Positions 3-35,938 of a stretch of 39,858 nucleotides of DNA are shown here, piece by piece (the stretch's first letter is position 1; the number at the start of each line of letters is the position of its first letter). The translations under genes and the position numbers were made by a program. Source of the DNA: Sarea resinae (taxonomy: Eukaryota); NCBI GenBank assembly GCA_026026165.1, contig JAPEUD010000038.1, forward strand, positions 186,001-225,858. Direction: 5' to 3'. The notes beneath the pieces were generated by a model. The model searched no databases and had not been told where the DNA came from. It saw only the letters and a list, made by a program, of their open reading frames with translations.

Positions 3-3000
3 TTGCTTCATACCAGGAACTATCTGCCTTCTTTGATTGAAGCGAGTGCAGAGATGAGCCAGGTGCACCGACAAGCAGTCCAACAGCGAAACTCTTCCGC
101 AAAAGCTGCAATCCGCCACATGCAAACAATATCGGCGGTCGAGTCGATGCTTGCAAATGTTCATTCAGATCTTTCGGGTCTAGACATAAACCCGGAAGAA
201 ATCGCAGCTTTTGACCTACTCACTCTGGTATCTAGATTGCCATTTGCTTATGGATCTCTATTGATAGAGTCTGTCCGGCGGCGAGAATGGTCGGAGAAGA
301 TGAAGACTGATTCTTCAACCTTGGCAGAGGAGATGGCAGCCTACAAAGAAGAAGAGGAGCGGCGCCGGAGAAAGTGGGTCAAGGCTCTTGGAGACTTTGT
401 TCCGAGTGGTGCGGTCGACGGCAAGGCGATAGGGGTAGAAGTCAACCTCCAAGGTGAAGAGAAGACATTACCATTCGCTACTCGGGAAGACGTCAATTCT
501 TTTCTGAAGGAGCTGGAGGACCTTGGTGGAATGGAAGAGATCACTAAAGAATTATCTCAGCTGCTGAAAGATTTGGATCGGCCTACTCGACAGCATGCGA
601 AAATAGCTAAAGCATTCAAAAATGGAAGCGTACATGACGCCGCTTTTGGCAGGGGCTCGCTCCTTCTTCGAGGTGAAGATGACCTTGTTCGGAGTCTGAA
701 GGATGACAAGAATAGACTTGAGGATAGGCTGAAGGGCTCTGAGAGTCGAGTGCGGAAGTTGGAGGATCTTCTACACCGCCAGAGCCAGATGGGTCGATAT
801 CCAGGTGGAAATATATTCCAGCCTTCCCACAGTCCTAGCCGAGACCCAATTAATCAAGCCACTTCTTTGTCCTCGCCGAGGCATTTGGATACAACATCTC
901 GTCGTTCATCGGTCTCTTCACGTAGGGTTTCTGCAAGCCATGGGATGGAGGATAAAGCCTTAGCAAACAGAATTCTAAGCCTAGAAGCCGAGCTGCTAGC
1001 GGAGCGGGAGAAAATAACAGGTCTTCAAAACGAGACTTCGCAGAAGAGTGGCACAGATGACCAACTAAAGATTCAGATGGAGGAGGCTATCTCGACAAAG
1101 AAGGACCTGATGGACAATCTAGAAGCGCAGCAACGCGAGTTTACTGGCGAGCGGAAGCTGCTTCTGGATGAGATCAGGAAAGTCAAGATGAGAAACGACG
1201 AACTCGAGGATGAATTTGACAGAATACTTGGAAGCAGAGATAATGAGAAGTCGGGCATCGATGAGAGAATTCTCTCTCTCGAGGCTGATCTAGATAAGAC
1301 TAGAAAGGCTGCTGCAGAAGAAGTGCAGAGAGCTCAGGGGCAGGTTGACTTCATGAAGAACGATTATACTCTGCAGCGAGAGAAAGCCAACAGACTTGAA
1401 AGCGAAATTGGCCAATCCGAACAGCAAAATGCCGGACTCAACGAGAAGGTTAAGGAGCTTGAGAACCATATGCTGGAGGATCAAACAGCTCGCGCAGAAG
1501 CTCTTCAAGCTATTCGATCTGCATATTCTCACCTAAAACCGGATGAAATGCCTCCGAACGACCTGACTACCTTGGCACAAGCATTCGAGCTCGCTACCGA
1601 ACGAGCAGTCAACCATGCAAAGGATCTGGGGGATGCTCTTGCCTTGGCGCAAGCTGATATCCAGGACCTGAAATCTAAAGTCAGTACCGCGGAGGAAGAT
1701 GGTCTTGCAGCCCATGAGAAACTTGCTGCAGAAGAGAACAAAAATTCCTGCCTTCAAGAAGCTCTTTCCCAAGAGCAAGCTCGGGTGGGCTCGTTAAGGA
1801 AGGAGCTAGACGATGAGCGGCAGGAACTGAATGGTCTCCGAACTAGATTCGCTGATGGTGAAACGGGATCTGAAGCTTTGAGATCGAGGGTGTCTCAAGA
1901 GGAGAGCAAAGTCATCGAGCTGTCAGGAAAACTTTCTGCTGCAGAGTCGCATGCCCGGAGCCTCGAGACAGAATTAGGAAGATGGCAATCAAACTTTCAA
2001 AGTTCTCGAAGAGAATCGCAAAGCACTGTGGCCCGTCTCGAGTCGCGTACTATGCGTGCAAAAGACTTGACACAGAGACTGTATTCTCAGAATGACCGTC
2101 TTAATCGTCTGCTCGAATCATTGGGTTACGCTATCACTCGTCGTGATGGCTCGATGATCATCCAGAAGGTGCCCAGAGCTACAAGTGCCAGCGCTACACT
2201 CTCCGATCCACAATCAATGAGTCGCACTGGATCTGGCCAGAATCCCACGAGGAGAGCCTTGGAAGATTCGGAAGATCTGAACTTGCTGTATTGGATGCAG
2301 GCGGACGACTCTGATACCGAGTCAGAGAAATATGCTGCATATCTGAGAAGCCTTGGGAAATTCGATGTTGAAGCATTCAGTGAAGCCATCACGAAACGTG
2401 TCAAAGAGACCGAGCATATGGCTCGCAAATGGCAGAAAGAAGCACGGGCTTATCGCGACAAATCACATAGAGCGCAGGCTGAAGCTCATGAGAAGATTGC
2501 GTTCCGTTCATTTAAGGAAGGAGACTTGGCACTTTTTCTTCCTACCCGGAATCAAGCAACAAGGCCATGGGCGGCTTTTAACGTCGGTGCGCCTCATTAT
2601 TTCCTCCGAGAGCAGGATTCGCACAAGCTGCGCACAAGAGATTGGCTTCTAGCTCGTATCAACAAAGTTGAAGAGAGAGTGGTCGATCTTTCAAGATCCC
2701 TCGCCGGGCTCAATGCGCCCAGCATCAGCGACCGCCGCTCAATTGGCGAAGGCAGTGAGGGTGGCGCTTCTATTGACGACGAAAATCCGTTCGAATTGTC
2801 CGATGGCCTGCGCTGGTACCTGCTCGATGCTGCCGAGGAGAAGCCTGGTGCCCCATCAACACCTGGTCTGGGCAAAAGCACTGTTGCCAGTGCACATGTC
2901 GATGCCAAAGGCAGCATTCGCATGAAAAAATCATCTGTCATTGGCGGAGGCGTCTCAGCCACTAAGACATTAAGCAAAAGTCTTGACAGCAGACGTAGCA

Positions 3001-3284
3001 GCTCGAATTCGAAGAAAGGCGTCCCCCCAGCTGCTGTTGCTGCCACTGGCGCTTCCACTTCTATCAACGCTTCCTCTCCGGCCTCTAATGGGGCTGCATC
3101 TGTTGATGCTTCCAGAGCAGGTACTTCCGCCGGGCCTCCCCCAACAGACGGTGCCTCTTATCGCCCATCAGGCCTAGTGGGTCTAGGGCTAGACAGCGAT
3201 GGCAATACAAGAGAGGACAGAAACATCGCAAACGCCGCCGAGAGCGCTGAACAGGTGCGAAAAGATCTCCTCTGGGGCCCCTAA
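3..3284 (+). CDS. ATG11: Autophagy-related protein 11 (Atg11/FIP200-like scaffold), 5'-truncated by the window edge; unspliced (short) C-terminal form ending EQVRKDLLWGP*
   Basis: 1093-codon open frame with long coiled-coil segments. The C-terminal Atg11/claw domain is recognisable: KIAFRSFKEGDLALFLPTRN..PWAAFNVGAPHYFL..DWLLARI.KVEERVVD..NPFELSDGLRWYLLDA. The frame is open from the window start, so the true start lies upstream. Confidence 0.95.
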   Translation: MLHTRNYLPSLIEASAEMSQVHRQAVQQRNSSAKAAIRHMQTISAVESMLANVHSDLSGLDINPEEIAAFDLLTLVSRLPFAYGSLLIESVRRREWSEKMKTDSSTLAEEMAAYKEEEERRRRKWVKALGDFVPSGAVDGKAIGVEVNLQGEEKTLPFATREDVNSFLKELEDLGGMEEITKELSQLLKDLDRPTRQHAKIAKAFKNGSVHDAAFGRGSLLLRGEDDLVRSLKDDKNRLEDRLKGSESRVRKLEDLLHRQSQMGRYPGGNIFQPSHSPSRDPINQATSLSSPRHLDTTSRRSSVSSRRVSASHGMEDKALANRILSLEAELLAEREKITGLQNETSQKSGTDDQLKIQMEEAISTKKDLMDNLEAQQREFTGERKLLLDEIRKVKMRNDELEDEFDRILGSRDNEKSGIDERILSLEADLDKTRKAAAEEVQRAQGQVDFMKNDYTLQREKANRLESEIGQSEQQNAGLNEKVKELENHMLEDQTARAEALQAIRSAYSHLKPDEMPPNDLTTLAQAFELATERAVNHAKDLGDALALAQADIQDLKSKVSTAEEDGLAAHEKLAAEENKNSCLQEALSQEQARVGSLRKELDDERQELNGLRTRFADGETGSEALRSRVSQEESKVIELSGKLSAAESHARSLETELGRWQSNFQSSRRESQSTVARLESRTMRAKDLTQRLYSQNDRLNRLLESLGYAITRRDGSMIIQKVPRATSASATLSDPQSMSRTGSGQNPTRRALEDSEDLNLLYWMQADDSDTESEKYAAYLRSLGKFDVEAFSEAITKRVKETEHMARKWQKEARAYRDKSHRAQAEAHEKIAFRSFKEGDLALFLPTRNQATRPWAAFNVGAPHYFLREQDSHKLRTRDWLLARINKVEERVVDLSRSLAGLNAPSISDRRSIGEGSEGGASIDDENPFELSDGLRWYLLDAAEEKPGAPSTPGLGKSTVASAHVDAKGSIRMKKSSVIGGGVSATKTLSKSLDSRRSSSNSKKGVPPAAVAATGASTSINASSPASNGAASVDASRAGTSAGPPPTDGASYRPSGLVGLGLDSDGNTREDRNIANAAESAEQVRKDLLWGP

Positions 3285-3407
3285 ATTCCTTTGCTCCCTC
3301 CACCCACCCCAATCCAGGATGAGGCGCGAAACAATCCGAAGGTCCGGGGCCCCCTGAATCGTTGCGCTATTAGTCACGACGCTGACGCGTATCCCATCCT
3401 CTTTCAG

Positions 3408-3710
3408 GCGCTACCGCGGGAACTTCTTCCCGGTTCAACTACTGCCGTCGAAGTCCGTGGTCTGGATCAGTCACCGCGCTTTGCATCTGCAGCTGCTTCG
3501 AAGTCGCCGCTCTCGTCGAGGACCGAAATTGTACCTCCGACTGCCGCAGCAGAGCCTCTAATGTCACAATCTTCTTCTTCATTCGCGAATGGAACAACAA
3601 GTAGTAAAGAGAAGGATGCTGACAAGGCCGGTCGCAAACCAAGGCAGAGTCTTTGGGATTCGCTGTGGTCGTTCGATCTCAGTGTCGAGAGTGGAAGGAC
3701 TCGACGCTGA
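3408..3710 (+). CDS. ATG11: Alternative terminal exon of ATG11 (100 aa, ALPRELL...SLWDSLWSFDLSVESGRTRR*)
   Basis: Donor CAG|GTGCGA at 3255, branch GCTGAC at 3381-3386, pyrimidine tract and TTTCAG acceptor at 3407. The junction is phase 0, and the exon is in the same frame as the main ORF. Confidence 0.7.
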   Translation, partial: ALPRELLPGSTTAVEVRGLDQSPRFASAAASKSPLSSRTEIVPPTAAAEPLMSQSSSSFANGTTSSKEKDADKAGRKPRQSLWDSLWSFDLSVESGRTRR

Positions 3711-4503
3711 TTTCCTCGCGTCGTCTTTTTGATTGATTGCATCAGCGTCTGGGTGTCTGTTCAGGACCGAATCTGCTTTTGCTTTGATCAAGTGAGGCAT
3801 TGCATCTTCTTTTTCGTTGCTTTTGTTTTCTCGTATCTCTTTCCGCTTTTTCGGAATTTTTTTTTTCATTTCTCCTGCATATTCCTTTGTCTTTGTCCTT
3901 TCTTCTCGTTTGCTCTAGAGCTCGCTAGCTAGATACCCGCCCTTAGTCTCCGTGTCGTCTTTTCTCATCCGTAAGGTATTCATATATTCCATCCATCTAT
4001 ACATACACACATGCATACATGCCCCTTGATCTATTGTTTGACCATCCACCACTCCGCCGGATCAGAAAGCTTTGTAGAACTTTGATCCTACTGGGGCTTG
4101 TCATAATGCAAGGCGTCGAGAACGCCACGCAAGCAGGTTGATATCTTGCGTGTATGCATGATTTGTATGGGTTTTGTATATTTTTATATATATAGGGAGA
4201 GAAAGAGAGAGAGAGAGAGAGAGCGGGGCCTTTATCTACATGCATGTGGAAAACGACCGAGGTCGTGGCAGGAGGATAGGAATTGTCTCTTCTGTATAGG
4301 GTGCATAGGACGGAGATATATTGGACAGATCGACATATGCTATATCTCTACATGATGGTCGCAGTAGCCCCCCATCCCCCTATGAATCTCAAAACCATCC
4401 CCGCGAAAGGAAAAAGAAGGAAATGAAAATGAAAAACTCCTTGGGGAAAATGCCTCTGCCTGGATCATTCTAATCCTACTATCTACCCCCCTTGCTCGGG
4501 AAC

Positions 4504-5604
4504 TCATGGCCCAGCTGCACCACCACCACCACCACCACCACCATCCTCCATACCCTCCATACCCGGCAGCCCGTCCACGCCACCCAGATCCTTGAAGAAC
4601 TCGTCAAAATCAATGCCGTGTTTCTCAAACAGCTCCTTAGCCTGCCGCATAGCCGAAGCCTGGCGCTGAGGAGTAAAGCCGCCTTCCTGGGTGGACTCGT
4701 ACTGGACGATTTCGATCCAGCGGAAAAACAGCGACTCGTGGCCGAGGAGGGTGAGGCGGTCCTTGAAAGCAACGATCTTCTTGCGGCTGACCTCGTCGCC
4801 GCCCTCGTCGAGCTGCCAGACGGGCCAGACGATCCAGCCGAACGGGTCCGAGTGCATGATGACGGTCTTCTGGAACTCGGCCTCGGCGACGCGCGCGCGC
4901 GCCACCAGATCGTGCGCGCACATCATGGCCGCAAAGTCTAGGTCCCACGACTTGTCCATCATGATGTAGCCCGTGCGGCGCGCCACGTACGCGCGGTCGA
5001 TGGCCGGCAGGATGCGCTCCAGGAAGATGGCGCTGTCCGGGTCCGTGATGATGGCGCTGGTGACGGCCGGGTTGGCGGCGGCGTCCCAGCTGCGCCGCGA
5101 CACCCGCACGATGATCTCGCGCGCCTGGAACCCGATCGTCCAGCGCCAGACGCACGGGTTCGCCAAGAAGGTGAAGGGCCATGGTAGGATGTATTTGAAG
5201 AGGACGAAGTCGAGCGCGAAGTTGCCGGCGCGCCGCAGGGCGATCGCTGCGAGCTGCGCCCAGGAGCTGTGCGCCACGTCTACCGTCGCGTCCGACGGGT
5301 TGCCGAGGGTCGACAGCACGATCGAGAAGTAAAAGGGCACGATGGCGTACAGGCGCCAGGCGAGTAGCACGAGGATGCCGATGTTCATGAGAATCGGGAC
5401 TGAGAAGACTTTGCGCTTGAACTGCGGCGGGTGCGTGTCGATGTGGGTGATGTAGATCTTGGCTGGGTCGAGGGTATCGAGGAAGGGTTGAAGAGCTTCG
5501 GGCGCCGGCTCGAAAGGCTCTGGTGGTTTGCTTGGGGGGGTTTTCGTGGTGGGTTTCGTGGGCTTCGGGGGCTTGGGGCCCCGTTTTGAGGCCGACTTCG
5601 CCAT
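4504..5604 (-). CDS. Uncharacterised fungal membrane protein (366 aa, about two TM segments, K/P-rich N-terminus, poly-Gly C-terminus)
   Basis: Intronless ATG-to-TGA ORF with strong GC3 codon bias. Hydrophobic stretches VFSVPILMNIGILVLLAWRLYAIVPFYFSIVLS and FALDFVLFKYILPWPFTFL. No family recognised. Confidence 0.85.
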   Translation of the reverse strand: MAKSASKRGPKPPKPTKPTTKTPPSKPPEPFEPAPEALQPFLDTLDPAKIYITHIDTHPPQFKRKVFSVPILMNIGILVLLAWRLYAIVPFYFSIVLSTLGNPSDATVDVAHSSWAQLAAIALRRAGNFALDFVLFKYILPWPFTFLANPCVWRWTIGFQAREIIVRVSRRSWDAAANPAVTSAIITDPDSAIFLERILPAIDRAYVARRTGYIMMDKSWDLDFAAMMCAHDLVARARVAEAEFQKTVIMHSDPFGWIVWPVWQLDEGGDEVSRKKIVAFKDRLTLLGHESLFFRWIEIVQYESTQEGGFTPQRQASAMRQAKELFEKHGIDFDEFFKDLGGVDGLPGMEGMEDGGGGGGGGAAGP

Positions 5605-6639
5605 TGGCCGTGTTCGATTTGCTGTGACTTGGAGAGCGGCCAGTCCTGTAGATATCAGGTCAATGCGTGGGACTTTCCGGCTTCAGGAATGACCAGCTGC
5701 CATGAGAGCACTGATGGTGGCTGTTCGTGTTGAGTGTAAGAGGATTGTTTACTCGGTGATGAGGTCAAATCTTTCTGGGGTAGGGAGTTGAAAGGTTCGG
5801 TAGAGTTTAGCGCATGTGCCAGGGCCAAGCTCTGTGGATCATATATTAATAGAACATCTCCACGAAGACTGGACCGATTAACAGACATTTATGACGTTTC
5901 GACATCCCGATAGAATGCAGGTGTCATTCTGGATGAAATCTGCGGTCATGGACGCAAGTGACAGAAGGATCATCACAAGATGAGAAGGGTTCATATACTT
6001 GCCGCATACGACACCCGACATCATCATCGCGATGATATTACAAACATTGGATTATACGCCCTCCATTACTCAGATAATCAATACCCCGAACGAACACGAT
6101 ATTTTCCTAACGAATTTACTTCTGTTGCTCCTTGGTGTCGACACCAGACTTCGGAGACAAAGCTTGCGCTGGATTTAATTCACAGTATTGTCTCTGCCTT
6201 TAACTACCGATGCATGCTCTCCCACCAAGCGTAAGTGACGTGGAGCGCATGAAAGTGACATTGAACGAACGTGCAAGCTCGCCCATCTCCCATCTCGCCC
6301 ATCATCCTCACTGGATCACACATGACTTGTGCCAGCGTGACCCTCTTGCCCAATTTTGTACAGATTATCGATCTCCTTTCCCGAAAGCGAAGTCTTCTGC
6401 AGAAAGGACTCTTTCAGACCACGACTTCTTCCCTGATGATAAATTGGAAGCCACAGTCCTTGAACACCCATGAACTTGAGAGGAGAGCCGAAAGAAAACG
6501 GAAAACAAGACACAAACGAAGGGGAAAGCACCTATCCTATTAGCAACATTTTCATTCTCGTAAATGAATAAAGACGACATGCTGAAACAAGTATCAGGCT
6601 TTTCGTCAGCTTGCAAGCAAAGCTGGTAAGTTGAACCGC

Positions 6640-16282: not shown

Positions 16283-18361
16283 TCACACCACGTCCGCCGC
16301 GCCAGGCCTCTCCATCTCGTAGAACAGCAGATAGACTTCCTTCTGCATGCCGAGCACATCGGCCGTCTTGCTCTCCTTGATCTTATCATCGCTGATCCGC
16401 CACCAGCGCTCGTTCTTTTCTTTGTCCTTTTTCGATCGATGGTGGCTGAAGCTGGAGTGCCGCCGGAGGCGCGACGTGTCGGAGATGGAGCGCGACCGTT
16501 TTGGCTGGCTTGCCGGGGTTGGCGTTGTGGACGAGCTGGAGACGGTGGATTTGCGTTGGAGCGTGGCCGATGCGGATACCGAGGTGGTGCGATGGTGATG
16601 GTGGGAGTGGCTTGTGGGGTCGGATGTAGTTGGCGTGCTTTTGGTATGCGCCGAAGATGGTTCCATGGATAATGGCGGGAGCGAGATGTGCTTTCCCAGG
16701 TGGGCGGGCGAAGAGTCCGAGGAAGGGCGCGCGGAGGAGACGTCGGCCGAGGAAGTCGACGCGGAAGAGGACGAGAGGAGATAGGATTGGTCTGGGCTAG
16801 GGGAGATGGCGAGGCGCTCTTTCTTGGGAACGGTGGCTGAGACGCGTGGACTGGATATTGTGGAAGACGGATTAGGACTGGTAGACGAGTTGGGTGAGCT
16901 ACTGCTGAGGCTGATGGGATTTGGGTGAGGATATAGGTTCGAGCTCGATCCCGGCGGCGGAGACGGTGGGGATAGACTCTGTCGCCTGAACGATTCGTAG
17001 TGTCCGCTATTGTGGCTGCCCTTGTGCATGACAAGACCGAAGAGCTTGTATCTCTTCTGATGGAGGATGCCGCCCAGAGGCAATCTTTCGGGGAAGGCAA
17101 CTTTGGCTGCGTTCTTGACCGATGCACTGCGAGTGTCATAGATAGAGCGTGATAGATGGATGGCCATGATCTTCGGAAATGAGATGATACGTGTATGTCT
17201 GGCTATCTTCCGCCTTGGGGCGTACTTGATATCGGGCAAGACCAAACCCTTGGGCGGTCTCTCGGGATCTTCTCGGAGCACCTTTTCGATTTTGTACATT
17301 TCGGATTCTATCGAAGCCTTCTCGGTGTCGGATTTGGCCTTTGCTAGCGCCTGGGACCGAAGCTGGAACGCGTGTTCGAGCCGACATCTTTCGCATTTAA
17401 AGTCCTCGATATATTCCGTCTTGAAGAGTCCGTCAAAGCAAGCGTTGAGTGAGGTGGAGCTTTGCTGAGGGACGTTAAGGGTCAACGTGACAAAGGTGGA
17501 TTTTTTCGGCTTGGGCTTAAAGTGACATGTTAGACACTCGATTTGTGATTCCAATAATCCTTCGAACGGGAAGCCATCTTCTTTTTCTTCAGGGAGTGCT
17601 TGGGCTTCAAGATGTTGCCGCTCAGCTTCTGATACTCCGTTGGTCTCCTTCTTCACTCCGTTGCCTTGTCCCTCAGCCTGTCCGTCACCTTGCTCGTTGC
17701 CTTGCCCGTCACCTTGCTCGTTGCCTTGCCTGTCACCTTGGCCGTCGTCTTCTCTGCCGCCGTCCTTTGCTAAATGTGGCTGGGACACCGATCGGCGCTT
17801 CCGCGCTTGCCGTCGCGCCTCATACCCTGCATGATATTCGTCGCTCAAACGCTCTGCCACGATCTGCAAGAATTCTTGAGCATCCTGCTGTTGCCTACTC
17901 AACCGGGTCCGAAACGCATGCTCGAGAGCTGCCACAAAGGCCTCGGCCGATATTGTCTTTTTGTATATTGGTCTCTCATTCAGCTTGTCTAGCAGACTTT
18001 TCAATGCTTGCGTTACGATAGCTCTCTGCAATGCCTGCTGCTTCCAATCATCCGCGCTGCTCTTCCCGCGGCTATCCGCTGCCAGTCTCGAGACCTCGGG
18101 CCCATCTAGCTTTCTTCGGTGCAGTTCGCGGACGAGGTAATCGCGTAGATCGTCGAGGCCGGCGAGGGCCTGAAGGACGGAATTGATGAAGCAATCGTTT
18201 GCCGGGTTCGAGAGGCCGACGGCGCCTTTCTTGCGGGAACTACTGGAGGCGTCTGAGGAGCCGCCATCAATAAAGGTCGGACCAAAGACGTACACGAGGG
18301 TAATGGCTGCCAGAGAAGCTCCCGCAGCATAAGTGGCGATGGTGAGCGGCCTGTCTGGCAT
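16283..18361 (-). CDS. UBP16: Ubiquitin C-terminal hydrolase (USP/C19 family), Ubp16/USP30-like, with N-terminal membrane anchor (692 aa)
   Basis: Cys box GLSNPANDCFINSVLQAL, QQQDAQEFL, His box HKGSHNSGHY and WWRISDDKI. N-terminal TM ATYAAGASLAAITLVYVFGPTF. The first in-frame ATG is at 18361; the track's 18568 start is a TTG. Confidence 0.9.
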   Translation of the reverse strand: MPDRPLTIATYAAGASLAAITLVYVFGPTFIDGGSSDASSSSRKKGAVGLSNPANDCFINSVLQALAGLDDLRDYLVRELHRRKLDGPEVSRLAADSRGKSSADDWKQQALQRAIVTQALKSLLDKLNERPIYKKTISAEAFVAALEHAFRTRLSRQQQDAQEFLQIVAERLSDEYHAGYEARRQARKRRSVSQPHLAKDGGREDDGQGDRQGNEQGDGQGNEQGDGQAEGQGNGVKKETNGVSEAERQHLEAQALPEEKEDGFPFEGLLESQIECLTCHFKPKPKKSTFVTLTLNVPQQSSTSLNACFDGLFKTEYIEDFKCERCRLEHAFQLRSQALAKAKSDTEKASIESEMYKIEKVLREDPERPPKGLVLPDIKYAPRRKIARHTRIISFPKIMAIHLSRSIYDTRSASVKNAAKVAFPERLPLGGILHQKRYKLFGLVMHKGSHNSGHYESFRRQSLSPPSPPPGSSSNLYPHPNPISLSSSSPNSSTSPNPSSTISSPRVSATVPKKERLAISPSPDQSYLLSSSSASTSSADVSSARPSSDSSPAHLGKHISLPPLSMEPSSAHTKSTPTTSDPTSHSHHHHRTTSVSASATLQRKSTVSSSSTTPTPASQPKRSRSISDTSRLRRHSSFSHHRSKKDKEKNERWWRISDDKIKESKTADVLGMQKEVYLLFYEMERPGAADVV
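17660..17746 (-). repeat. Coding minisatellite (24-bp unit, ~3.5 copies) encoding GQGD(R/G)QGNEQ-like repeats inside the USP domain insertion
   Basis: ccgtcaccttgctcgttgccttgc repeated with variants; protein DDGQGDRQGNEQGDGQGNEQGDGQAEGQGNG. Confidence 0.85.
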
Positions 18362-19164
18362 GTCCACAATCAAGATGACAGAGCCGTTTGCCGGAGGATT
18401 GGAAGGGTGGCGACGCGAGCGAGCCCGTGGGGAGAGGCCTGACGGAGAAGGGAAGCTTCGGCAATCACGCCTTTCCTCATAGTCTCCGACACGCTGCTTG
18501 AAACGGGAAGAGAGAGCAAGGTAGTCAATAAGAGGAAAATGAATGGCGAGGCAGAGAAAGAGGGACAAGGGCGAGGGAGCTAGGATGAAGCAGCGACTGG
18601 AGTCATCTGAGGAGGGGGTGCAGAGAGTTGGATGATGGGCGAGATTAGGAATGATGTCGATGGCATGAGGGGCTCTATTCTAGCATGGTTTATTTTGCCG
18701 TAGCTCACCGCACTGCATTTGCATTTCTATCGATTGGGGAATGATCCATCGTGGGGGGGGGGATCCATTCACATCGATTTTAGGCTTCAGTTTGTCTGGA
18801 GATGGGAGACTGCGGACACTGCACTGCACATTAACATGCATAACAGCAGAGTATGACCTCTCGGACCCTTATGCCGACCGAGACATCTCCATGCCCTGCT
18901 CATGTTGGACTGCGCAGTACTCCCGGTAGAGCGCGAAGTCACGACTCCATCTTCCCCCACGCGCACTACTGCGGTAGAGCTTCGCGCACCAAGGCATCGG
19001 ATCCATTCATTGCCTTAGTAAGATACAGTAGTACCCCGTACGGTCGATGCTTCGAACTCAACACGCAAGGCCTTCACGTGACCTGGCGATTTGCTCAGGC
19101 TGCTCTCTGGCTTGCTACCTACCTCCTACGGACTACTCTAGTCTATCCTTTTATCGTCATCGCA

Positions 19165-24528: not shown

Positions 24529-27500
24529 ATGGCTGATTGGGGTTTGAGCTCGACTCAAACCTCATCCATGTTACCCCGGCAGCAGCAGAGCGAGAGCGGG
24601 GCAGACAAATTTCTTGGTCTCATCTCAGACCCTTTCGAGAGTTCGGTAAGTCTTCTCGGAACGATGGAATCCTGCCCGAGACTGATGAAGGCAACAGTTT
24701 CAAGCCAATGCTTTTTGGGCTTCGATCGGCTCATCCATCGGCGTTACCGTTCTCGGCACCATCTTCTTCTCTTTAATACGACCTCATCACTCCCTCGTCT
24801 ATGCGCCGAAACTCAAGATCGCCGAAGGGAAACGCGCTCTACCGCCCGTGGGTAGAGGACTATTTGCGTGGATCAAGCCAATCATCCAGATCCGGGAAGT
24901 TGATATGGTGGAAAAGATCGGACTGGATGCTATAGTTTTTCTGCGATTCACACGCATGTGCCGAAATCTTTTTGTCATCATGAGCGTCATCGGCTGCCTG
25001 GTGATGATACCGGTCAACGTTGGATTCAGGAACAAATCTCAAGCCAAAAGCTCCTCTAGCTTTCTCTTGATGACTCCCATGTTTGTATCTGGTAAAGCGA
25101 TTTGGGCTCAAGTGGTTTGCGCCTGGGCATTCGACATCGTAATAGCAGTATTTCTATGGACAAATTATCGGGCCATTGTGCGACTGAGGAGGCAGTACTT
25201 TGAGTCTCCGGACTACCAAAAAGCTCTCCATGCAAGGACCCTGATGGTGAGGCTTTCCGAATGAAATCTTGGCATTCGTGAACCCAACTGACGATTCTAG
25301 TTAACCGATATCCCGAGCAATTTCCGCACGGATCAAGGAATTCATCTTCTGACCGAAGAGATCAAGACCGCACGCGAGGTTCCCCGATGTGCGATTGCAC
25401 GAAATGTCAAGATACTACCGTCGCTCATCGAAGAGCACGACGAGACAGTTCGTAAGCTAGAGTCCTATCTGGCAAAGTATCTCAAAAATCCAGACAATCT
25501 ACCACGAGCACGCCCAACTTGTCGCCCTTCCAAGAAAGACAAGAGCTTTCGGACTGGACAGCGGGTGGACGCCATAGAATACCTGACGGAGCGTATTGGT
25601 GACCTGGAGGCTAAGATTAAAGAGGTCCGCCTGACCATTGACAAACGAGACCCCTTGCCCTATGGCTTTGCTAGCTACGATACGATCCCCGAAGCACACA
25701 GGATTGCGTATGCCGCGCGCAACAAGCACAAGCATGGGACGACCATCAAGCTAGCGCCAAGGCCGAATGACTTGATCTGGAGAAACCTGGCACTGTCAAA
25801 AGCTTCTCGGAGATGGCGCAGGTTGACGAATGTTCTCTGGGTCGCTGTGCTAACCTTGATATGGATTGCACCTAACGCATTGATCGCCGTTTTCTTATCT
25901 GATTTGTCTAACCTGGGAACACTGTGGCCAGCTTTCAATACCGAGCTGCATCGTAGCCCCAAAGGCTGGGCTATTGTCCAAGGTATCGCGGCGCCTGCGG
26001 TTACGTCTCTGGTATACCTTCTGCTGCCCATCGCATTTCGACGTCTCTCAATACGTGCCGGAGACAAAACCAAAACATCCCGAGAACGCCATGTCACACA
26101 CCGTTTATACGCCTTTTTTGTATTCAACAACTTGATCGTCTTTTCGGCGTTTTCCGCGGTCTGGCAATTCGTTGCTACCGTCATCGGCGCGAAACAACAT
26201 AACGAGGGAGTGTGGGAAGCCATCAAAGAGGGCCAGCTGTTTTCGAAGCTCATGACTGCATTGTGCAATATCTCAACCTATTGGGTGACATGGATCCTAC
26301 AGCGGAATCTCGGGGCTACGGTCGACTTGGCTCAGCTTCTCAACCTGTCCTGGATTTGGTTCACGAAGACATTTATGAATCCCACTCCACGACAAGAAAT
26401 TGAGTGGACAGCTCCTCCCATGTTTGACTATGCCAGCTACTACAACTACGTGAGAGAATTACCAGCTTTATCGGAACAGAACTAACCATACTCAGTTCCT
26501 CTTCTATGCAACGGTGGCACTTTGTTTCGCTACCATGCAACCTATCGTCCTCCCGGTTACTGCCTTGTACTTTGGCCTAGATTCATGGCTGAAGAAATAT
26601 CTACTGCTGTCCGTATTCCTTTCCTATTCCCTTCGCTGCACGCCCTAATGAATACAGTTATGTCTTCATCACGAAAACGGAGTCCGGTGGACAGTTCTGG
26701 CGTATCATCTACAATCGCTTCCTGTTCGCCACTCTTCTTTCGAACTTTGCGATTGCACTTGTGGTCAAAGCGCGAGGTGATTGGACGATGATTTGCGCCA
26801 TGATTCCACTGCCTTTTCTGTTGCTGGGCTTCAAGTGGTACTGCAGCCGGGCGTTTGACGACCAGATCCATTACTATACCAAGAAAGACCTCGAGTCTTC
26901 CTTGGCAGTCCCTCCCGGCGCCAAGCCACACCGACGCAACGACAAGCTCAGCTATCGTTTCGGTAATCCGGTTCTCTTCAAGCCCTTGATTACTCCCATG
27001 GTGAACGCGAAGGCTCGGCACGTTCTCCCTCAGATATATCGCGGTCGTCTTGAGGCAGATATGGATAGTGCTAGCCTAGCAGGCTATAACGACATAGTCC
27101 TTGACCCGCTGTCCTCTACCAAGACGGGCAAATTAGCGCAGGGAGCAGGGCCTGCTCCATTCGAGTTCGTCGACGAAAACCGTCTAGACTTCTCGTACTA
27201 CAAAAATCGTGACGATTTCGGCGACGAACACGGCGGAGGTGAGATCTATGGTAACCCCATTGATCTGATCTCCGAACGTTCCGATACGCCCAAGAGCTTC
27301 TTGGGCTATGAAGGCCGACCACCCACCCGAGGCTCCCCAGATTCTTCCCGAGCATCTAGCCCGACAGGCTTTGGTATGAATGGCGGTGTTGGCACAACCT
27401 ATCCGGCAGATTACCATCATCCTGCTTATCGCAACGAAGATCTCGGATTACCTCAATTTACCAGCACAGGCTACGGCGATCTTGGTGATCCGTCGGGCTC

Positions 27501-28403: not shown

Positions 28404-30239
<1,836 letters not shown>

Positions 30240-31163: not shown

Positions 31164-32529
31164 ATGGCATCTTCAGAAGATCCGGTAGCCGTGTCGTCGC
31201 AGACCAAGAATTCGGGCTCATGGGGTGCTTTTCTGAAAGTTCGTCTCTTCATACCAGACCACGTAAATGGCTCACATCTAACGCCGCCTCCAGTCGATCG
31301 CCTCGTTCAACGGAGACCTCGCATCTCTCACTGCCCCGCCATTCATCCTCTCCACAACCTCCCTCACCGAGTATTCCTCTTACTGGGCCGAGCACCCTTC
31401 GCTCTTCGTCGCGCCCGCCTCGGAGCCTGATCCACAGAAGCGTGCCGTCTTGGTGCTGAAGTGGTTCCTCAGCACGCTGAAGCAGCAGTACTGTAGCCGG
31501 AACGAGGAGCTTGGCAGCGAGAAGAAACCCCTGAATCCTTTCCTGGGGGAATTGTTCTTGGGCAAGTGGGAGGATGAAGCTGGAGTGACACAACTGGTGT
31601 CGGAGCAGGTCAGGTAGGGTCGGATCTTGTCCAGCTTGGCGAATGCGTCACTCTAATTCATGCCAGCCATCATCCGCCTGTCACTGCCTACTCCATCTGG
31701 AACGACAAGCACGGGATTCGGGTAAGCTTCCCCTCCAGCATCCTCACTTCTGGATCGCGAATCTGACGCTCCTCAGCTTCAAGGCTACAACGGCCAAAAG
31801 GCTGCCTTTTCCAGCACCATCACCGTCAAGCAAGTAGGTCGCGCCATCCTCCACATCGACGCCTACGACGAAGACTACCTCATCACGCTCCCTTCTCTCC
31901 ACATCGAAGGTCTCATCTACGGCACCCCCTTTGTTGAGCTCGACCGCTCGACCTATATCCAGTCATCCACGGGCTTTACCGCCAAGATAGAGTACAGCGG
32001 CAAAGGCTGGCTCTCCGGCAAGAAAAATACCTTCACCTCATCCCTCTACCGCACAGGCCACGAGCGCTCCCCACTCTACACGATCGATGGCCAGTGGAAT
32101 GACGTCTTCACCATCAAAGACGCCGCCACCAAAAAGCCCGTCGAAACCTACAGCGCCGCTGACCATCCCACCACGCCCTTGACCGTCTCTCCTCTCTCCG
32201 ACCAAGACATCCTCGAGTCGCGCCGCGCGTGGTCCAAGGTCGCCGACGCCATCACCAAGGGCGACATGGACGCCGCGGGTGCGCAGAAGGCCAAGATCGA
32301 AGACCAGCAGCGCGCTTTGCGCAAGAAGGAGGCTGCCGAGAGCCGCGAGTGGGAGCGGCGCTTCTTCAGCCGTAAGATGACGGACCCCGTCGTCGAGAAG
32401 CTGGGTCCGAAAATCGGTATGAAGTCCGAGCTGGACAAGACGGGCGGCGCATGGTTGTGGGATGAGGACAAGGCGAAGGAGGCCAAGCCGCCGTATGCGG
32501 ATAGCGTTGAGTTCAAGGAATGGTTCTAG
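31164..32529 (+). CDS. KES1: Oxysterol-binding protein, short Osh4/Kes1 type; exons 31164-31238, 31294-31613, 31667-31721, 31777-32529
   Basis: [42 protein letters not shown], the OSBP signature SEQVS/HHPP, and ESRRAW...KIEDQQR. Three GT-AG introns, all in frame. Confidence 0.95.
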
Positions 32530-33860: not shown

Positions 33861-34153
33861 TTTGCTGCCGAGATTGAATGTGCGGGCGTGTGGTCGATGC
33901 GCTGCTGTGAAAGTGATGTTGAGTGGACTGTTCACCATCTCGATGTTGATATCTTCGGTAGCGAAGAGTTCTCCGCAGGCGAATCCTTATCTTATCTCTC
34001 CTTGTCTTATCGGCTTCGCCGCCCGAGGCCCAGCAAACACGCCCCTCAGTCCCTCGACGATACAGCCAAGGTGCGCAGCTGTCGTCAACATGTCTGCGAC
34101 CGCCAGACCTTCCACAAAGAACACCGCAGAGATCACGAGGAAGCAATTGCGAG

Positions 34154-35938
34154 ATGCTCTCAACGGTGCCACCACTCCCAGGCCCTGCGCCCACAGCTTC
34201 CAGGGCCAGAGAAAGCGACTCGCGACCATCTGGCGATAACGTGCCAGGTTTCGGCAATTACAATGCTGAGGGCACTGGGACGCAGCATTCCGAGCGAGCA
34301 ACAACACTGACCCCATTGTCCAAGGCCATGACCCGGAATTCTGAAACCGCATTCGCAGAGAAAGGAGATATATCCACATCGCAGACCCACCCGAGCCCCT
34401 CGTCTAACGGCGGTCCCAGGATCCTTGTCATAGGAGCCGGCTCGCGGGGAAATGCCTACGCGCGCGCCATCGCCGAGTCCACGAACGGCATCGTCGCGGC
34501 CGTCGCAGAACCCATCGCGTCGAAGCGCCAGGAGCTGGGGCGCCGGTATATCTGGGGTGAAACGGGGCAGTCGGGCCCGGGCCAGGAGTTCGAAGACTGG
34601 GCGCAATTCCTCGAGTATGAAGAAGATCGCCGGAGACGAAAGGCCCGTGGAGAAGACGTCCCCGAGGGTGTTGATGGCGTGCTGGTGTGCGTTCTGGACG
34701 AATTGCACAAGAGGGTCATCACGGGACTCGCGCATCTGGAGCTTCATGTCTTGAGTGAGAAGCCTCTGGCGACCACCCTTGGGGACTGTCTGGATATCTG
34801 GGCGTCTTTGCGGCCAAAGAAGGCTGGGGAGAAGCCGAGGACCATCTTCGCTATTGGTCATGTGCTGAGGTATAGCCCGCATAATATGCTTCTCCGGAAG
34901 CTGCTACTGGAAGACAACGTGATTGGGGATATCATATCAATCGAGCATACTGAACCGGTGGGATGGTGGCATTTTTCGCATAGCTATGTCAGGGGAAACT
35001 GGCGGAAGGAATCGAGTACCGCGCCGTCCCTCCTGACAAAGTCCTGTCACGACATCGACTTCATCCTGTGGCTGCTATGCTCACCACCGCCTCACTCAAG
35101 GGAGCCAGCACACTTGCCAGCCCGTCTGACTTCGACGGGATCGTTGGTGTATTTCAGGAAGTCAAATAAACCGCCATTAGCGGCCAACGCTACGAATTGT
35201 CTATCTTGCCCGGCAGAGCAGCAATGCATCTATAGCGCCAAAAAGATATACCTCGAAAAACAACTCCAGAAGGGAAATGCCGACTGGCCCGTCAACATTG
35301 TAGATCCCGAAATTGAAGACTTGTTCGCGAATCAAGGTCCAAAGCCCGCATCAAAAAGACTACTTGAGCGCCTCGCGGAAGACTACGATACCCCTTCCGA
35401 GGAAGCCGATAGGCGCCCATGGTTCGGGCGATGCGTCTATGAATCCGCAAACGATGTTTGTGACGACCAGAACGTGATCATCAACTGGGACGAAGATCGT
35501 TGTCCCTCGTCGTCTACTTCGATATCCCGACACAGAGGCCCCAAAACGGCCATCTTCCACATGGTCGCGTTCACGGAAGCGCAGTGCGAGCGCCGAGGCC
35601 GTGTCTACGGCACCCGAGGAGAGATCGAATATGACTCGCGCGCCATCAGTGTCTTTACCTTTGGGTCCGGAGAGAAGGAAATACACTATCCGCCTCAGCC
35701 TGGCGGAGGACACGGAGGGGGTGACGACGGGCTGGCTACGCAGTTCATCCGCGCCATCGATGCGGTCAAGGATGGCGGGATGAGCGTCGAGACGGCCCAG
35801 AGAGAGCACATCGGGTGTGATATCGAGGAGATGATAAGGAGCCATGCCATGGTTTTCGCCGCGGAAGAGGCGCGGGTGGAGAAGAAGGTGGTGGGATGTC
35901 ATGAGTGGTGGATCAAGAATATGGGGCCAAACCTCTAA
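34154..35938 (+). CDS. Gfo/Idh/MocA-family NAD(P)-dependent oxidoreductase (StrI-like), 594 aa
   Basis: Rossmann ILVIGAGSRGNAYA, HVLSEKPLA, IGHVLRYSP, HSYVRGNWR, LLTKSCHDID, GRCVY..NDVCDDQ and GGHGGGD. Confidence 0.92.
   Translation: MLSTVPPLPGPAPTASRARESDSRPSGDNVPGFGNYNAEGTGTQHSERATTLTPLSKAMTRNSETAFAEKGDISTSQTHPSPSSNGGPRILVIGAGSRGNAYARAIAESTNGIVAAVAEPIASKRQELGRRYIWGETGQSGPGQEFEDWAQFLEYEEDRRRRKARGEDVPEGVDGVLVCVLDELHKRVITGLAHLELHVLSEKPLATTLGDCLDIWASLRPKKAGEKPRTIFAIGHVLRYSPHNMLLRKLLLEDNVIGDIISIEHTEPVGWWHFSHSYVRGNWRKESSTAPSLLTKSCHDIDFILWLLCSPPPHSREPAHLPARLTSTGSLVYFRKSNKPPLAANATNCLSCPAEQQCIYSAKKIYLEKQLQKGNADWPVNIVDPEIEDLFANQGPKPASKRLLERLAEDYDTPSEEADRRPWFGRCVYESANDVCDDQNVIINWDEDRCPSSSTSISRHRGPKTAIFHMVAFTEAQCERRGRVYGTRGEIEYDSRAISVFTFGSGEKEIHYPPQPGGGHGGGDDGLATQFIRAIDAVKDGGMSVETAQREHIGCDIEEMIRSHAMVFAAEEARVEKKVVGCHEWWIKNMGPNL

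Follow-up and report, generated by a model that had tools for sequence, protein, structure and literature searches.

The window analyzed here, a 39,858-nt stretch of the Sarea resinae genome (GenBank assembly GCA_026026165.1, contig JAPEUD010000038.1, positions 186,001 to 225,858 of the forward strand), carries the 3′ two-thirds of the Atg11 gene of this filamentous ascomycete. Comparison with orthologous loci strongly supports the reading, which we consider likely, that ATG11 has two alternative C-termini, obtained by retaining or removing its last intron. Were the optional intron (3255-3407) retained, translation would run nine codons into it and stop, giving a protein that ends ...AEQ-VRKDLLWGP (the A form); were it removed, those nine residues would be swapped for a 100-amino-acid (aa) disordered tail with a WxxL motif (the B form). 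On the same comparison, the majority of filamentous ascomycetes probably produce Atg11 in two versions. The elements of the gene, in window positions, are as follows.

3-3254, plus strand: ATG11 main exon, with its 5′ end open as the window begins within the gene, and ending ...NAAESAEQ
2382-2837, plus strand: PF10377 domain (helix plus the claw that binds selective-autophagy receptors), a Pfam match with coordinates taken from the frame
2838-3254, plus strand: post-claw linker, with conserved blocks PGAPSTPGLGKSTVASAHVDAKGSIR and KSLDSRRSSSNSKK and then a poorly conserved disordered stretch
3255-3407, plus strand: last intron, proposed to be alternatively retained, 153 nt (3 × 51), phase 0, donor GTGCGA
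3255-3284, plus strand: A ending, with peptide VRKDLLWGP at 3255-3281 and stop codon TAA at 3282-3284
3315-3317, plus strand: alternative in-frame acceptor CAG (AATCCAG/), at which the assembly's gene model P0002 reads ...AESAEQ/DEARNNPKV...
3382-3386, plus strand: branch-site consensus CTGAC, within GCTGAC at 3381-3386, branch A at 3385
3408-3710, plus strand: B exon, 100 codons plus TGA at 3708-3710, ending RQSLWDSLWSFDLSVESGRTRR
3654-3689, plus strand: B motif core WDSLWSFDLSVE, a WxxL core followed by alternating hydrophobic and acidic/Ser residues, with GRTRR next

Atg11 is the selective-autophagy scaffold, a hub between cargo receptors and the autophagy machinery, and in filamentous fungi it is required for pexophagy, mitophagy, development and virulence. 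The gene was identified as an Atg11/FIP200 scaffold because the claw domain PF10377 (E = 3.3e-51, 173 bits against a cut-off of 22, aa 794-945 of the open reading frame [ORF]) and the Atg17-like domain PF04108 (E = 2e-30, 107 bits against a cut-off of 43, aa 5-132) both scored above their cut-offs. In the ORF listing the frame (3-3284, plus strand) extends past the 5′ edge of the window, and the main exon matches residues 291-1374 of the assembly's gene model (P0002, 1504 aa) without a difference. Linker blocks PGAPSTPGLGKSTVASAHVDAKGSIR and KSLDSRRSSSNSKK are invariant columns in three alignments (A1, A3 and A5).

The last intron has the features of a spliceosomal intron (GT donor, AG acceptor, a CTRAY near the acceptor and exons in frame). 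Its donor reads CAG/GTGCGA at 3254/3255 (CAG codon 3252-3254, GTGCGA 3255-3260), the acceptor TTTCAG/ ends at 3407, and the branch A (3385) precedes it by 22 nt. An earlier note on this DNA, which proposed a splice switch between two ATG11 endings from reading the sequence, had placed the 153-nt phase-0 intron, the stop codon and the WDSL motif correctly to the base. It had missed that the frame is open from 3285 to 3710, so that a single stop codon stands between the two ORFs. The donor sequence is coupled to Val-Arg codons (GTN CGN or GTN AGR), a form which we take to be non-consensus for fungi, and a donor of this kind would suit partial splicing.

To compare orthologous DNA, 80 metagenome loci were retrieved with a profile of the claw end plus tail; with the window added, 78 of 81 sequences carried the claw anchor. 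In nearly all non-Pezizomycete loci, an ORF with the A ending is followed 80-400 nt past the A stop by an ORF with the B ending, as recognized by a hidden Markov model (HMM) of B tails. A donor at Val-Arg or Val-Gly codons was present in 69 loci including the window; 55 of these were unique, and 50 of the 55 had a B ORF. A phase-blind scan, taking the first strict CTRAY after the donor and then the first AG, placed the acceptor in the B frame in 48 of the 50 unique loci, against one third by chance; the remaining two have no strict CTRAY and a TTAAT-type site only. Applied to the window, the scan returns intron 3255-3407, with an acceptor in the frame of the B peptide. In these loci the last intron usually has CTGAC or CTGAT as its branch site, and intron lengths range from 51 to 153 nt, leaving remainders of 0, 1 and 2 on division by 3 in 28, 7 and 13 of 48 loci. 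Because the A/B arrangement recurs in orthologous loci, it is not a product of chance. In one Onygenales- or Eurotiales-like ATG11 locus (L015, 3-740), the exons are fused in frame at the predicted junction (...AAIFDQ/GMERDK...RPWEKLWSLDYRSESTSGKR), representing either precise intron loss via a spliced copy or a contig derived from cDNA.

The A peptide is translated solely when the intron stays in the mRNA, and its last seven codons lie within the intron, beyond the donor hexamer. Across 40 unique DNA versions of these codons, aa identity was 0.60 and the ratio of nonsynonymous to synonymous differences (pN/pS) was 0.40, compared with identities of 0.09-0.20 and pN/pS of 0.88-0.92 in three blocks of the adjoining upstream exon and 0.07 and 0.97 in the seven triplets past the A stop; these figures are rough, because the loci share ancestry and pS (0.8) approaches saturation, yet the contrast of both endings with their flanks is large. 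The linker codons directly upstream of the donor (aa identity 0.09-0.20, pN/pS about 0.9) have a predicted local distance difference test score (pLDDT) below 50 in an AlphaFold2 (AF2) model. In 38 of 40 versions the first two positions of the A peptide's Gly and Pro codons do not vary, and the third takes any of the four bases at similar frequency (12/8/9/11 and 17/6/7/10). Its Leu codons alternate between the CTN and TTR families, and the identical peptide VRKDLLWGP is encoded by ten different DNAs with TGA, TAG or TAA as the stop.

The B ending is constrained in a similar way. Aa identity in the B motif was 0.52 and pN/pS 0.43 (34 versions), against a pN/pS of 0.85 for codons 8-14 upstream. 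The tail as a whole is disordered (S+T+P = 34%) with a conserved motif at its end, and with the HMM of orthologous B tails, which counts the window sequence among its members, the window's B tail reaches 44 bits (E = 4.5e-12). One check proposed in the earlier note was whether both peptides and their splice sites are conserved, and it came out in favor: across the 50 unique loci both peptides are conserved (pN/pS 0.40 and 0.43), and the acceptor is in phase in 48. Since both endings are kept by protein-level selection across crown Pezizomycotina, as judged from comparison and not from RNA, both proteins would be made and used.

The choice of acceptor in the window is less firm than the existence of the intron. 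In P0002, the gene model that comes with the assembly, the in-frame intron taken out is another one (3255-3317, 63 nt), so that the same switch could operate here with acceptor 3317, or with both acceptors, and a 131-aa tail beginning DEARNNPKVRGPLNRCAISHDADAYPILFQ. We regard this as a possible but distinctly less likely arrangement. At 63 nt, the shorter intron is closer to the usual length elsewhere (51-131 nt), and the 153-nt alternative is the longest of the set, which counts against acceptor 3407. A pyrimidine-rich tract precedes the AG at 3317, and codon usage does not separate the two acceptors, 3318-3407 scoring the same in frame (0.20) as the B exon. However, no CTRAY lies upstream of 3317, whereas a strict CTRAY stands 7-30 nt before the acceptor in 48 of 50 orthologous loci, and the pyrimidine fraction is 0.71 before 3317 compared with 0.86 before 3407, where CTGAC lies at 22 nt. 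Furthermore, the 30 residues added by acceptor 3317 (DEARNNPKV...YPILFQ) are not S/T/P-rich (13%) and have no counterpart in other tails. Acceptor 3407 is therefore moderately favored, as the only one with a canonical branch site and a strong pyrimidine tract, matching the rule in orthologues; both may be used.

The conserved part of the B tail is its last 22 residues, W-[DE]-x-L-[WF]-S-Phi-D-Phi-x-Phi-E-[SG]-G and then basic residues. Alignment A2 comprises 37 B tails; the Trp is present in all 37 and the Asp at +7 is invariant; position +3 is Leu in at least 90%, otherwise Ile or Phe. In the window the core starts with WDSL (TGG GAT TCG CTG, 3654-3665). Clusters of K/R flank the motif on both sides, and three conserved acidic residues lie inside the core. 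In two Leotiomycete-like loci (L022:2507-2599 and L024:4620-4739) the motif breaks off after WDSLW (...IIWDSLWYVLSS...), which suggests an extra intron inside it; the A peptide in both is VGYHQIDDLIGP. A single-sequence search with the 100-aa tail returned only the window's own model, E-values for so short a motif being too weak. Searched as a profile against 1.84 billion representative proteins, the B tail gave 52 matches at E ≤ 0.001, 46 of them of ≤143 aa and 6 longer. Among the 12 matches inspected, five were Atg11 models or fragments, six were short ORFs with the motif at their end, and one, P0140, carried it internally; no other named family appeared among these 12. A search of the ESM Atlas gave no usable match for the B tail.

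As to what the B tail may do, the 37 tails match the core [W/F/Y]-x-x-[L/I/V] of Atg8-interacting motifs (AIM) and LC3-interacting regions (LIR). The B motif could be a strand-forming docking peptide, of the AIM/LIR kind or the FIP200-interacting region (FIR) kind, by which the post-claw linker's end would be fastened either to Atg8 or back to the claw. According to PMC7946963, AIM and FIR peptides bind as added β-strands, on Atg8 and the claw respectively, and the FIR core is psi-Theta-x-x-Gamma with an acidic or phosphorylated residue directly before the hydrophobic residue. Arabidopsis ATG11 binds ATG8 through AIMs (PMC7301642), a precedent for Atg8 contact of the B tail. In the 12-residue B core the strand-type hydrophobic moment (muH at 180 degrees) is 0.52 compared with 0.21 for shuffled sequences, a value reached by 6% of shuffles, and this strand-like character is more in keeping with an AIM- or FIR-type ligand than with a membrane helix.

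Two sets of observations count against a docking role. The residues before the Trp are basic, unlike those of typical AIMs or the psi position of an FIR: none of the usual acidic residues stands there, and the upstream sequence is K/R-rich (SPSKKSxI, RKPRQSL), often with Ser at -3 or -2. The earlier note had remarked on this for the window alone, and it holds across the family of 37 tails. In the Trp register psi is I, A, P or L, which does not match an FIR, and the alternative register S-L-W-S-L fits only if its Ser is phosphorylated, and Eurotiales tails carry R or K at this position. For AIM and FIR alike it is atypical to have no acidic residues upstream, though an upstream Ser could be phosphorylated. 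Secondly, both tails are of low confidence in AF2 models. For the window's A form (304 aa, 121 alignment rows), mean pLDDT was 57, with 60-79 in the claw and 54-61 without secondary structure over the last ten residues. For a B-type model (P0152, 590 aa, 26-row alignment), mean pLDDT was 61, with the claw below 50. A complex prediction of the claw (P0002 residues 1095-1300) with the 33-aa B tail, run with alignments unused, scored 0.00, which speaks neither for nor against binding. The functional proposal carries somewhat less than half of the confidence that we place in the two isoforms themselves.

The earlier note had raised a membrane-binding tail as an option; that the B tail is instead a membrane-binding amphipathic helix with basic flanks is improbable. 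Two Trp, several Leu and the K/R clusters on either side would suit a membrane, AF2 drew a helix over the motif of P0152 (at a pLDDT of only about 40-50), and yeast Atg11 has further, unmapped membrane-binding regions (PMC12453139). Yet the helical moment of the core (muH at 100 degrees) is 0.23, equal to the shuffled mean of 0.24, and the core includes three conserved acidic residues. As it has no helical amphipathicity and its periodicity is i, i+2, a membrane helix is disfavored. The interpretation in the earlier note is supported in part: both endings are conserved peptides under purifying selection, with splice signals in phase between them, a regulated switch and Atg8 binding stay at the level of proposals, and a membrane-binding helix is disfavored.

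The A ending offers less to compare. Its consensus at the carboxyl end is D-L-L-Phi-G-P (I-D-D-L-I-G-P in Leotiomycetes), which matches no motif that we could name. A shuffled AIM is an IDWG-like motif, and reading DLLWGP in that way was dropped as the W is not conserved (L or S in Eurotiales, I or M in Leotiomycetes). In the A form, free of the B contact, D-L-L-Phi-G-P-COOH would present a different C-terminal short linear motif.

It is also conceivable that splicing is constitutive, that only the B form matters and that the conserved start of the intron is a splicing or other RNA signal. The Val and Arg codons do overlap the donor hexamer, B occurs more widely than A, the A peptide is lost from one lineage, and L015 lacks the intron altogether. 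An RNA signal would keep bases, however, and here conservation runs 7-14 codons past the donor hexamer, stops exactly at the stop codon and holds amino acids while third positions and Leu codon families vary. Because amino acids and the position of the stop are kept and bases are free, the A ending is conserved as protein and not as an RNA signal, and we consider constitutive splicing quite unlikely.

Public Atg11 gene models bear on whether the gene simply ends at the A stop. A query with the C-terminal 315 residues of P0002 found 1092 relatives. No close relative of S. resinae was among the matches listed, the best of which was 72% identical in the claw only. The best 120 of the 1092 comprised 78 A-type, 18 B-type and 24 other models; among 210 fetched models of at least 700 aa, 127 were A, 21 B and 60 other, with two set aside by pattern (P0002, itself B, and P0157). 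The statement in the earlier note that both endings occur among filamentous-ascomycete Atg11 models is borne out by these counts. A-type models end like ...EVR(K/R/T)DLLWGP, for instance ...EEVRKDLLWGP or ...FDEVRRDLLLGP, with ...EVRNIDDLIGP in Leotiomycetes; B-type models end like ...WDSLWSLDLSLESGKxKK, for instance ...IWDSLWSLDLSLESGKNKK, or ...RPWERLWSLDYRLEGG in Eurotiales. B models diverge from A models exactly before Val-Arg: Aspergillus wentii has ...APIFDE/SILSRR... where relatives have ...APIFDE/VRRDLLLGP, and in Cryomyces minteri a single 90% cluster holds both ...MPDGDE/VRKDLLWGP and ...MPDGDE/DGLK...GIWESLWQLDVSLESGKGKKQV. Aspergillus, Penicillium and Xylographa each have annotated models of both types, and public annotation of ATG11 is inconsistent, with A and B within one genus. 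Two further observations concern these models. Five of Geoglossomycete type (P0010, P0014, P0021, P0026 and P0071) end ...NQEVREDRTPPRGHFTSTLTGV, which after EVR is unlike A yet mutually conserved. In P0157 (Trichodelitschia bisporula, C-terminal 110 aa), a stopless A-like peptide QDEVRGELLWSP is continuous with the B motif GIWDSLWQLDVSFESGRKK, as either a single exon or a mis-modelled retained intron.

The 127 of 210 models that end at A could be taken to mean that the gene stops there and that the B ORF is either a relic or a small ORF of its own, and metagenome gene callers do give the B ORF as separate proteins of 35-143 aa. An in-frame ATG precedes the B motif in only 15 of 50 B ORFs, however, which makes B an exon rather than a small gene in its own right; 48 of 50 loci have acceptor and branch site in phase, purifying selection on B is strong, and the two exons are fused in frame in L015 and form a single ORF in P0157. 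Termination at the A stop alone is thus highly unlikely. Read-through of the TAA at 3282-3284, giving a 141-aa extension with both motifs, might be suggested by the single stop between two ORFs that share a frame in the window and by the continuous ORF of P0157, but in 20 of 48 loci the intron cannot be divided into whole codons, so that read-through is not the conserved mechanism, and it is the least credible of the alternatives.

The two-isoform reading has its own difficulties, and the following observations weigh against it. One sequencing run matched the window, sharing 9% of words, and the contigs of this sole RNA library sit at 3746-3992 and 4371-4507, outside the junction at 3255-3407. 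One of them marks the following feature.

3711-3992, plus strand: probable 3′ untranslated region (UTR) downstream of the B stop, from a 246-nt RNA-library contig on 3746-3992 with 3 mismatches and 1 gap

This UTR call is weak, as the library may contain DNA and the strand of the contig is not known. The assembly's own model takes acceptor 3317 instead of 3407, and the relatedness of the loci, with pS close to saturation, leaves the pN/pS figures rough. A lichen-type lineage (L025, L027, L031 and L038-45) has kept B (pN/pS 0.05) and replaced A with an unrelated peptide (VGISRAPDW and similar) behind the donor GTAGGC; A is dispensable there, since it was replaced while B was kept. Lastly, Pezizomycetes (Trichophaea, Tuber, Morchella, Pyronema and others) have neither ending, and no B ORF was found in their loci; their Atg11 C-terminus reads ...PRTPVEKIVAGVRSRAGSIRS.... 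A conserved block of their own, ...PRTPVEKI(V/A)A(G/S)(V/I)RSRA(G/S)SIRS..., was seen in L051, L052, L067, L068, L077 and P0173-P0206.

Elsewhere in the sampled Pezizomycotina, loci and models show A and B together in Eurotiomycetes, Lecanoromycetes and other lichen-forming classes, Leotiomycetes, Xylonomycetes and Dothideomycetes (Cryomyces, Elasticomyces and Trichodelitschia), and at least one Sordariomycete (Annulohypoxylon, with a B tail) is represented. A weak Val-Arg donor would permit partial splicing, and we tentatively suggest, while rating the full proposal as rather unlikely, that ATG11 of crown Pezizomycotina holds an ancient binary switch: splicing efficiency would set the proportion of a strand-forming WxxL end, which would dock on Atg8 or return to the scaffold's own claw to gate the binding of receptors, to a DLLWGP end with its own partner, and so balance modes of selective autophagy. 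If two isoforms are indeed made, including in Aspergillus, Penicillium and the dimorphic Onygenales, then tagging, complementation and interaction studies built on a single gene model saw one Atg11 only, and two new short linear motifs would lie downstream of the claw.

Beyond ATG11 the window is ordinary fungal chromosome, a housekeeping neighborhood, with the following Pfam matches in exon-sized ORFs.

16286-18679, minus strand: UCH ubiquitin hydrolase
25301-26482, plus strand: PHM7/RSN1 channel
28908-30236, plus strand: phosphoglucomutase
31726-32526, plus strand: oxysterol-binding protein
33962-35935, plus strand: GFO/IDH/MocA oxidoreductase

Between ATG11 and the next gene lies a (GA)n microsatellite (4195-4223). 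A minus-strand ORF at 4504-5682 (392 aa) has no Pfam match, and the CCA/CCC-rich run at 4508-4600 is a Gly run at its C-terminus.

To our knowledge, Saccharomyces Atg11 has no such post-claw tail. A full-text literature search found no report of an ATG11 intron-retention or alternative-C-terminus event, supplementary tables of splicing surveys being outside the search. Among autophagy genes, alternative splicing is described for ATG4, ATG8 and ATG10 of Beauveria bassiana (PMC6550541), including a BbAtg8-beta isoform (PMC6550541, PMC10128008). As with ATG11 here, these are filamentous-ascomycete autophagy genes with splice isoforms, and the Beauveria isoforms differ in binding behavior; in contrast, ATG11 is not among the genes reported, and the evidence there is RNA-seq in one species where ours is conservation across classes. 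In fungal glycolytic enzymes, splicing or read-through is reported to add a cryptic peroxisomal signal at the C-terminus (PMC4207609). The likeness to ATG11 lies in a 3′-terminal choice of splice or stop by which filamentous fungi swap one short C-terminal linear motif for another. The two Atg11 endings (WGP and K/R-rich) are unlike the tripeptide of the type 1 peroxisomal targeting signal (PTS1), an identity rejected on sequence against the PTS1 consensus, and dual localization of an enzyme is not at issue.

The B motif resembles AIM, LIR and FIR peptides in its invariant aromatic residue, hydrophobic +3 position, acidic residues within and after the core, strand periodicity and placement in the disordered tail of an Atg1-complex scaffold. 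It differs in the basic or neutral residues before the aromatic and in eight further conserved residues including the invariant Asp at +7. Yeast Atg11 is autoinhibited through its own C-terminal domain and released by receptor binding at the claw (PMC6687201); its C-terminal end thus controls activity, and a tail folding back on the claw in Pezizomycotina would, by analogy, be a comparable device.

Conserved alternative splicing that diversifies the proteome is described as rare in fungi, SKI7/HBS1 being the classic case (PMC3597508), and ancient protein-diversifying events are also treated in PMC7491326. Like SKI7/HBS1, ATG11 would give two proteins from one gene, through a splice event conserved over a large fungal clade with both products selected. 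ATG11 differs in being another gene, in relying on retention of the last intron and in swapping only a C-terminal short motif. On this comparison, we read the two Atg11 endings as an ancient fungal case of alternative splicing, set in a gene on which selective autophagy centers; this, if it holds, would be a clean addition to the short list of ancient proteome-diversifying splicing events in fungi.

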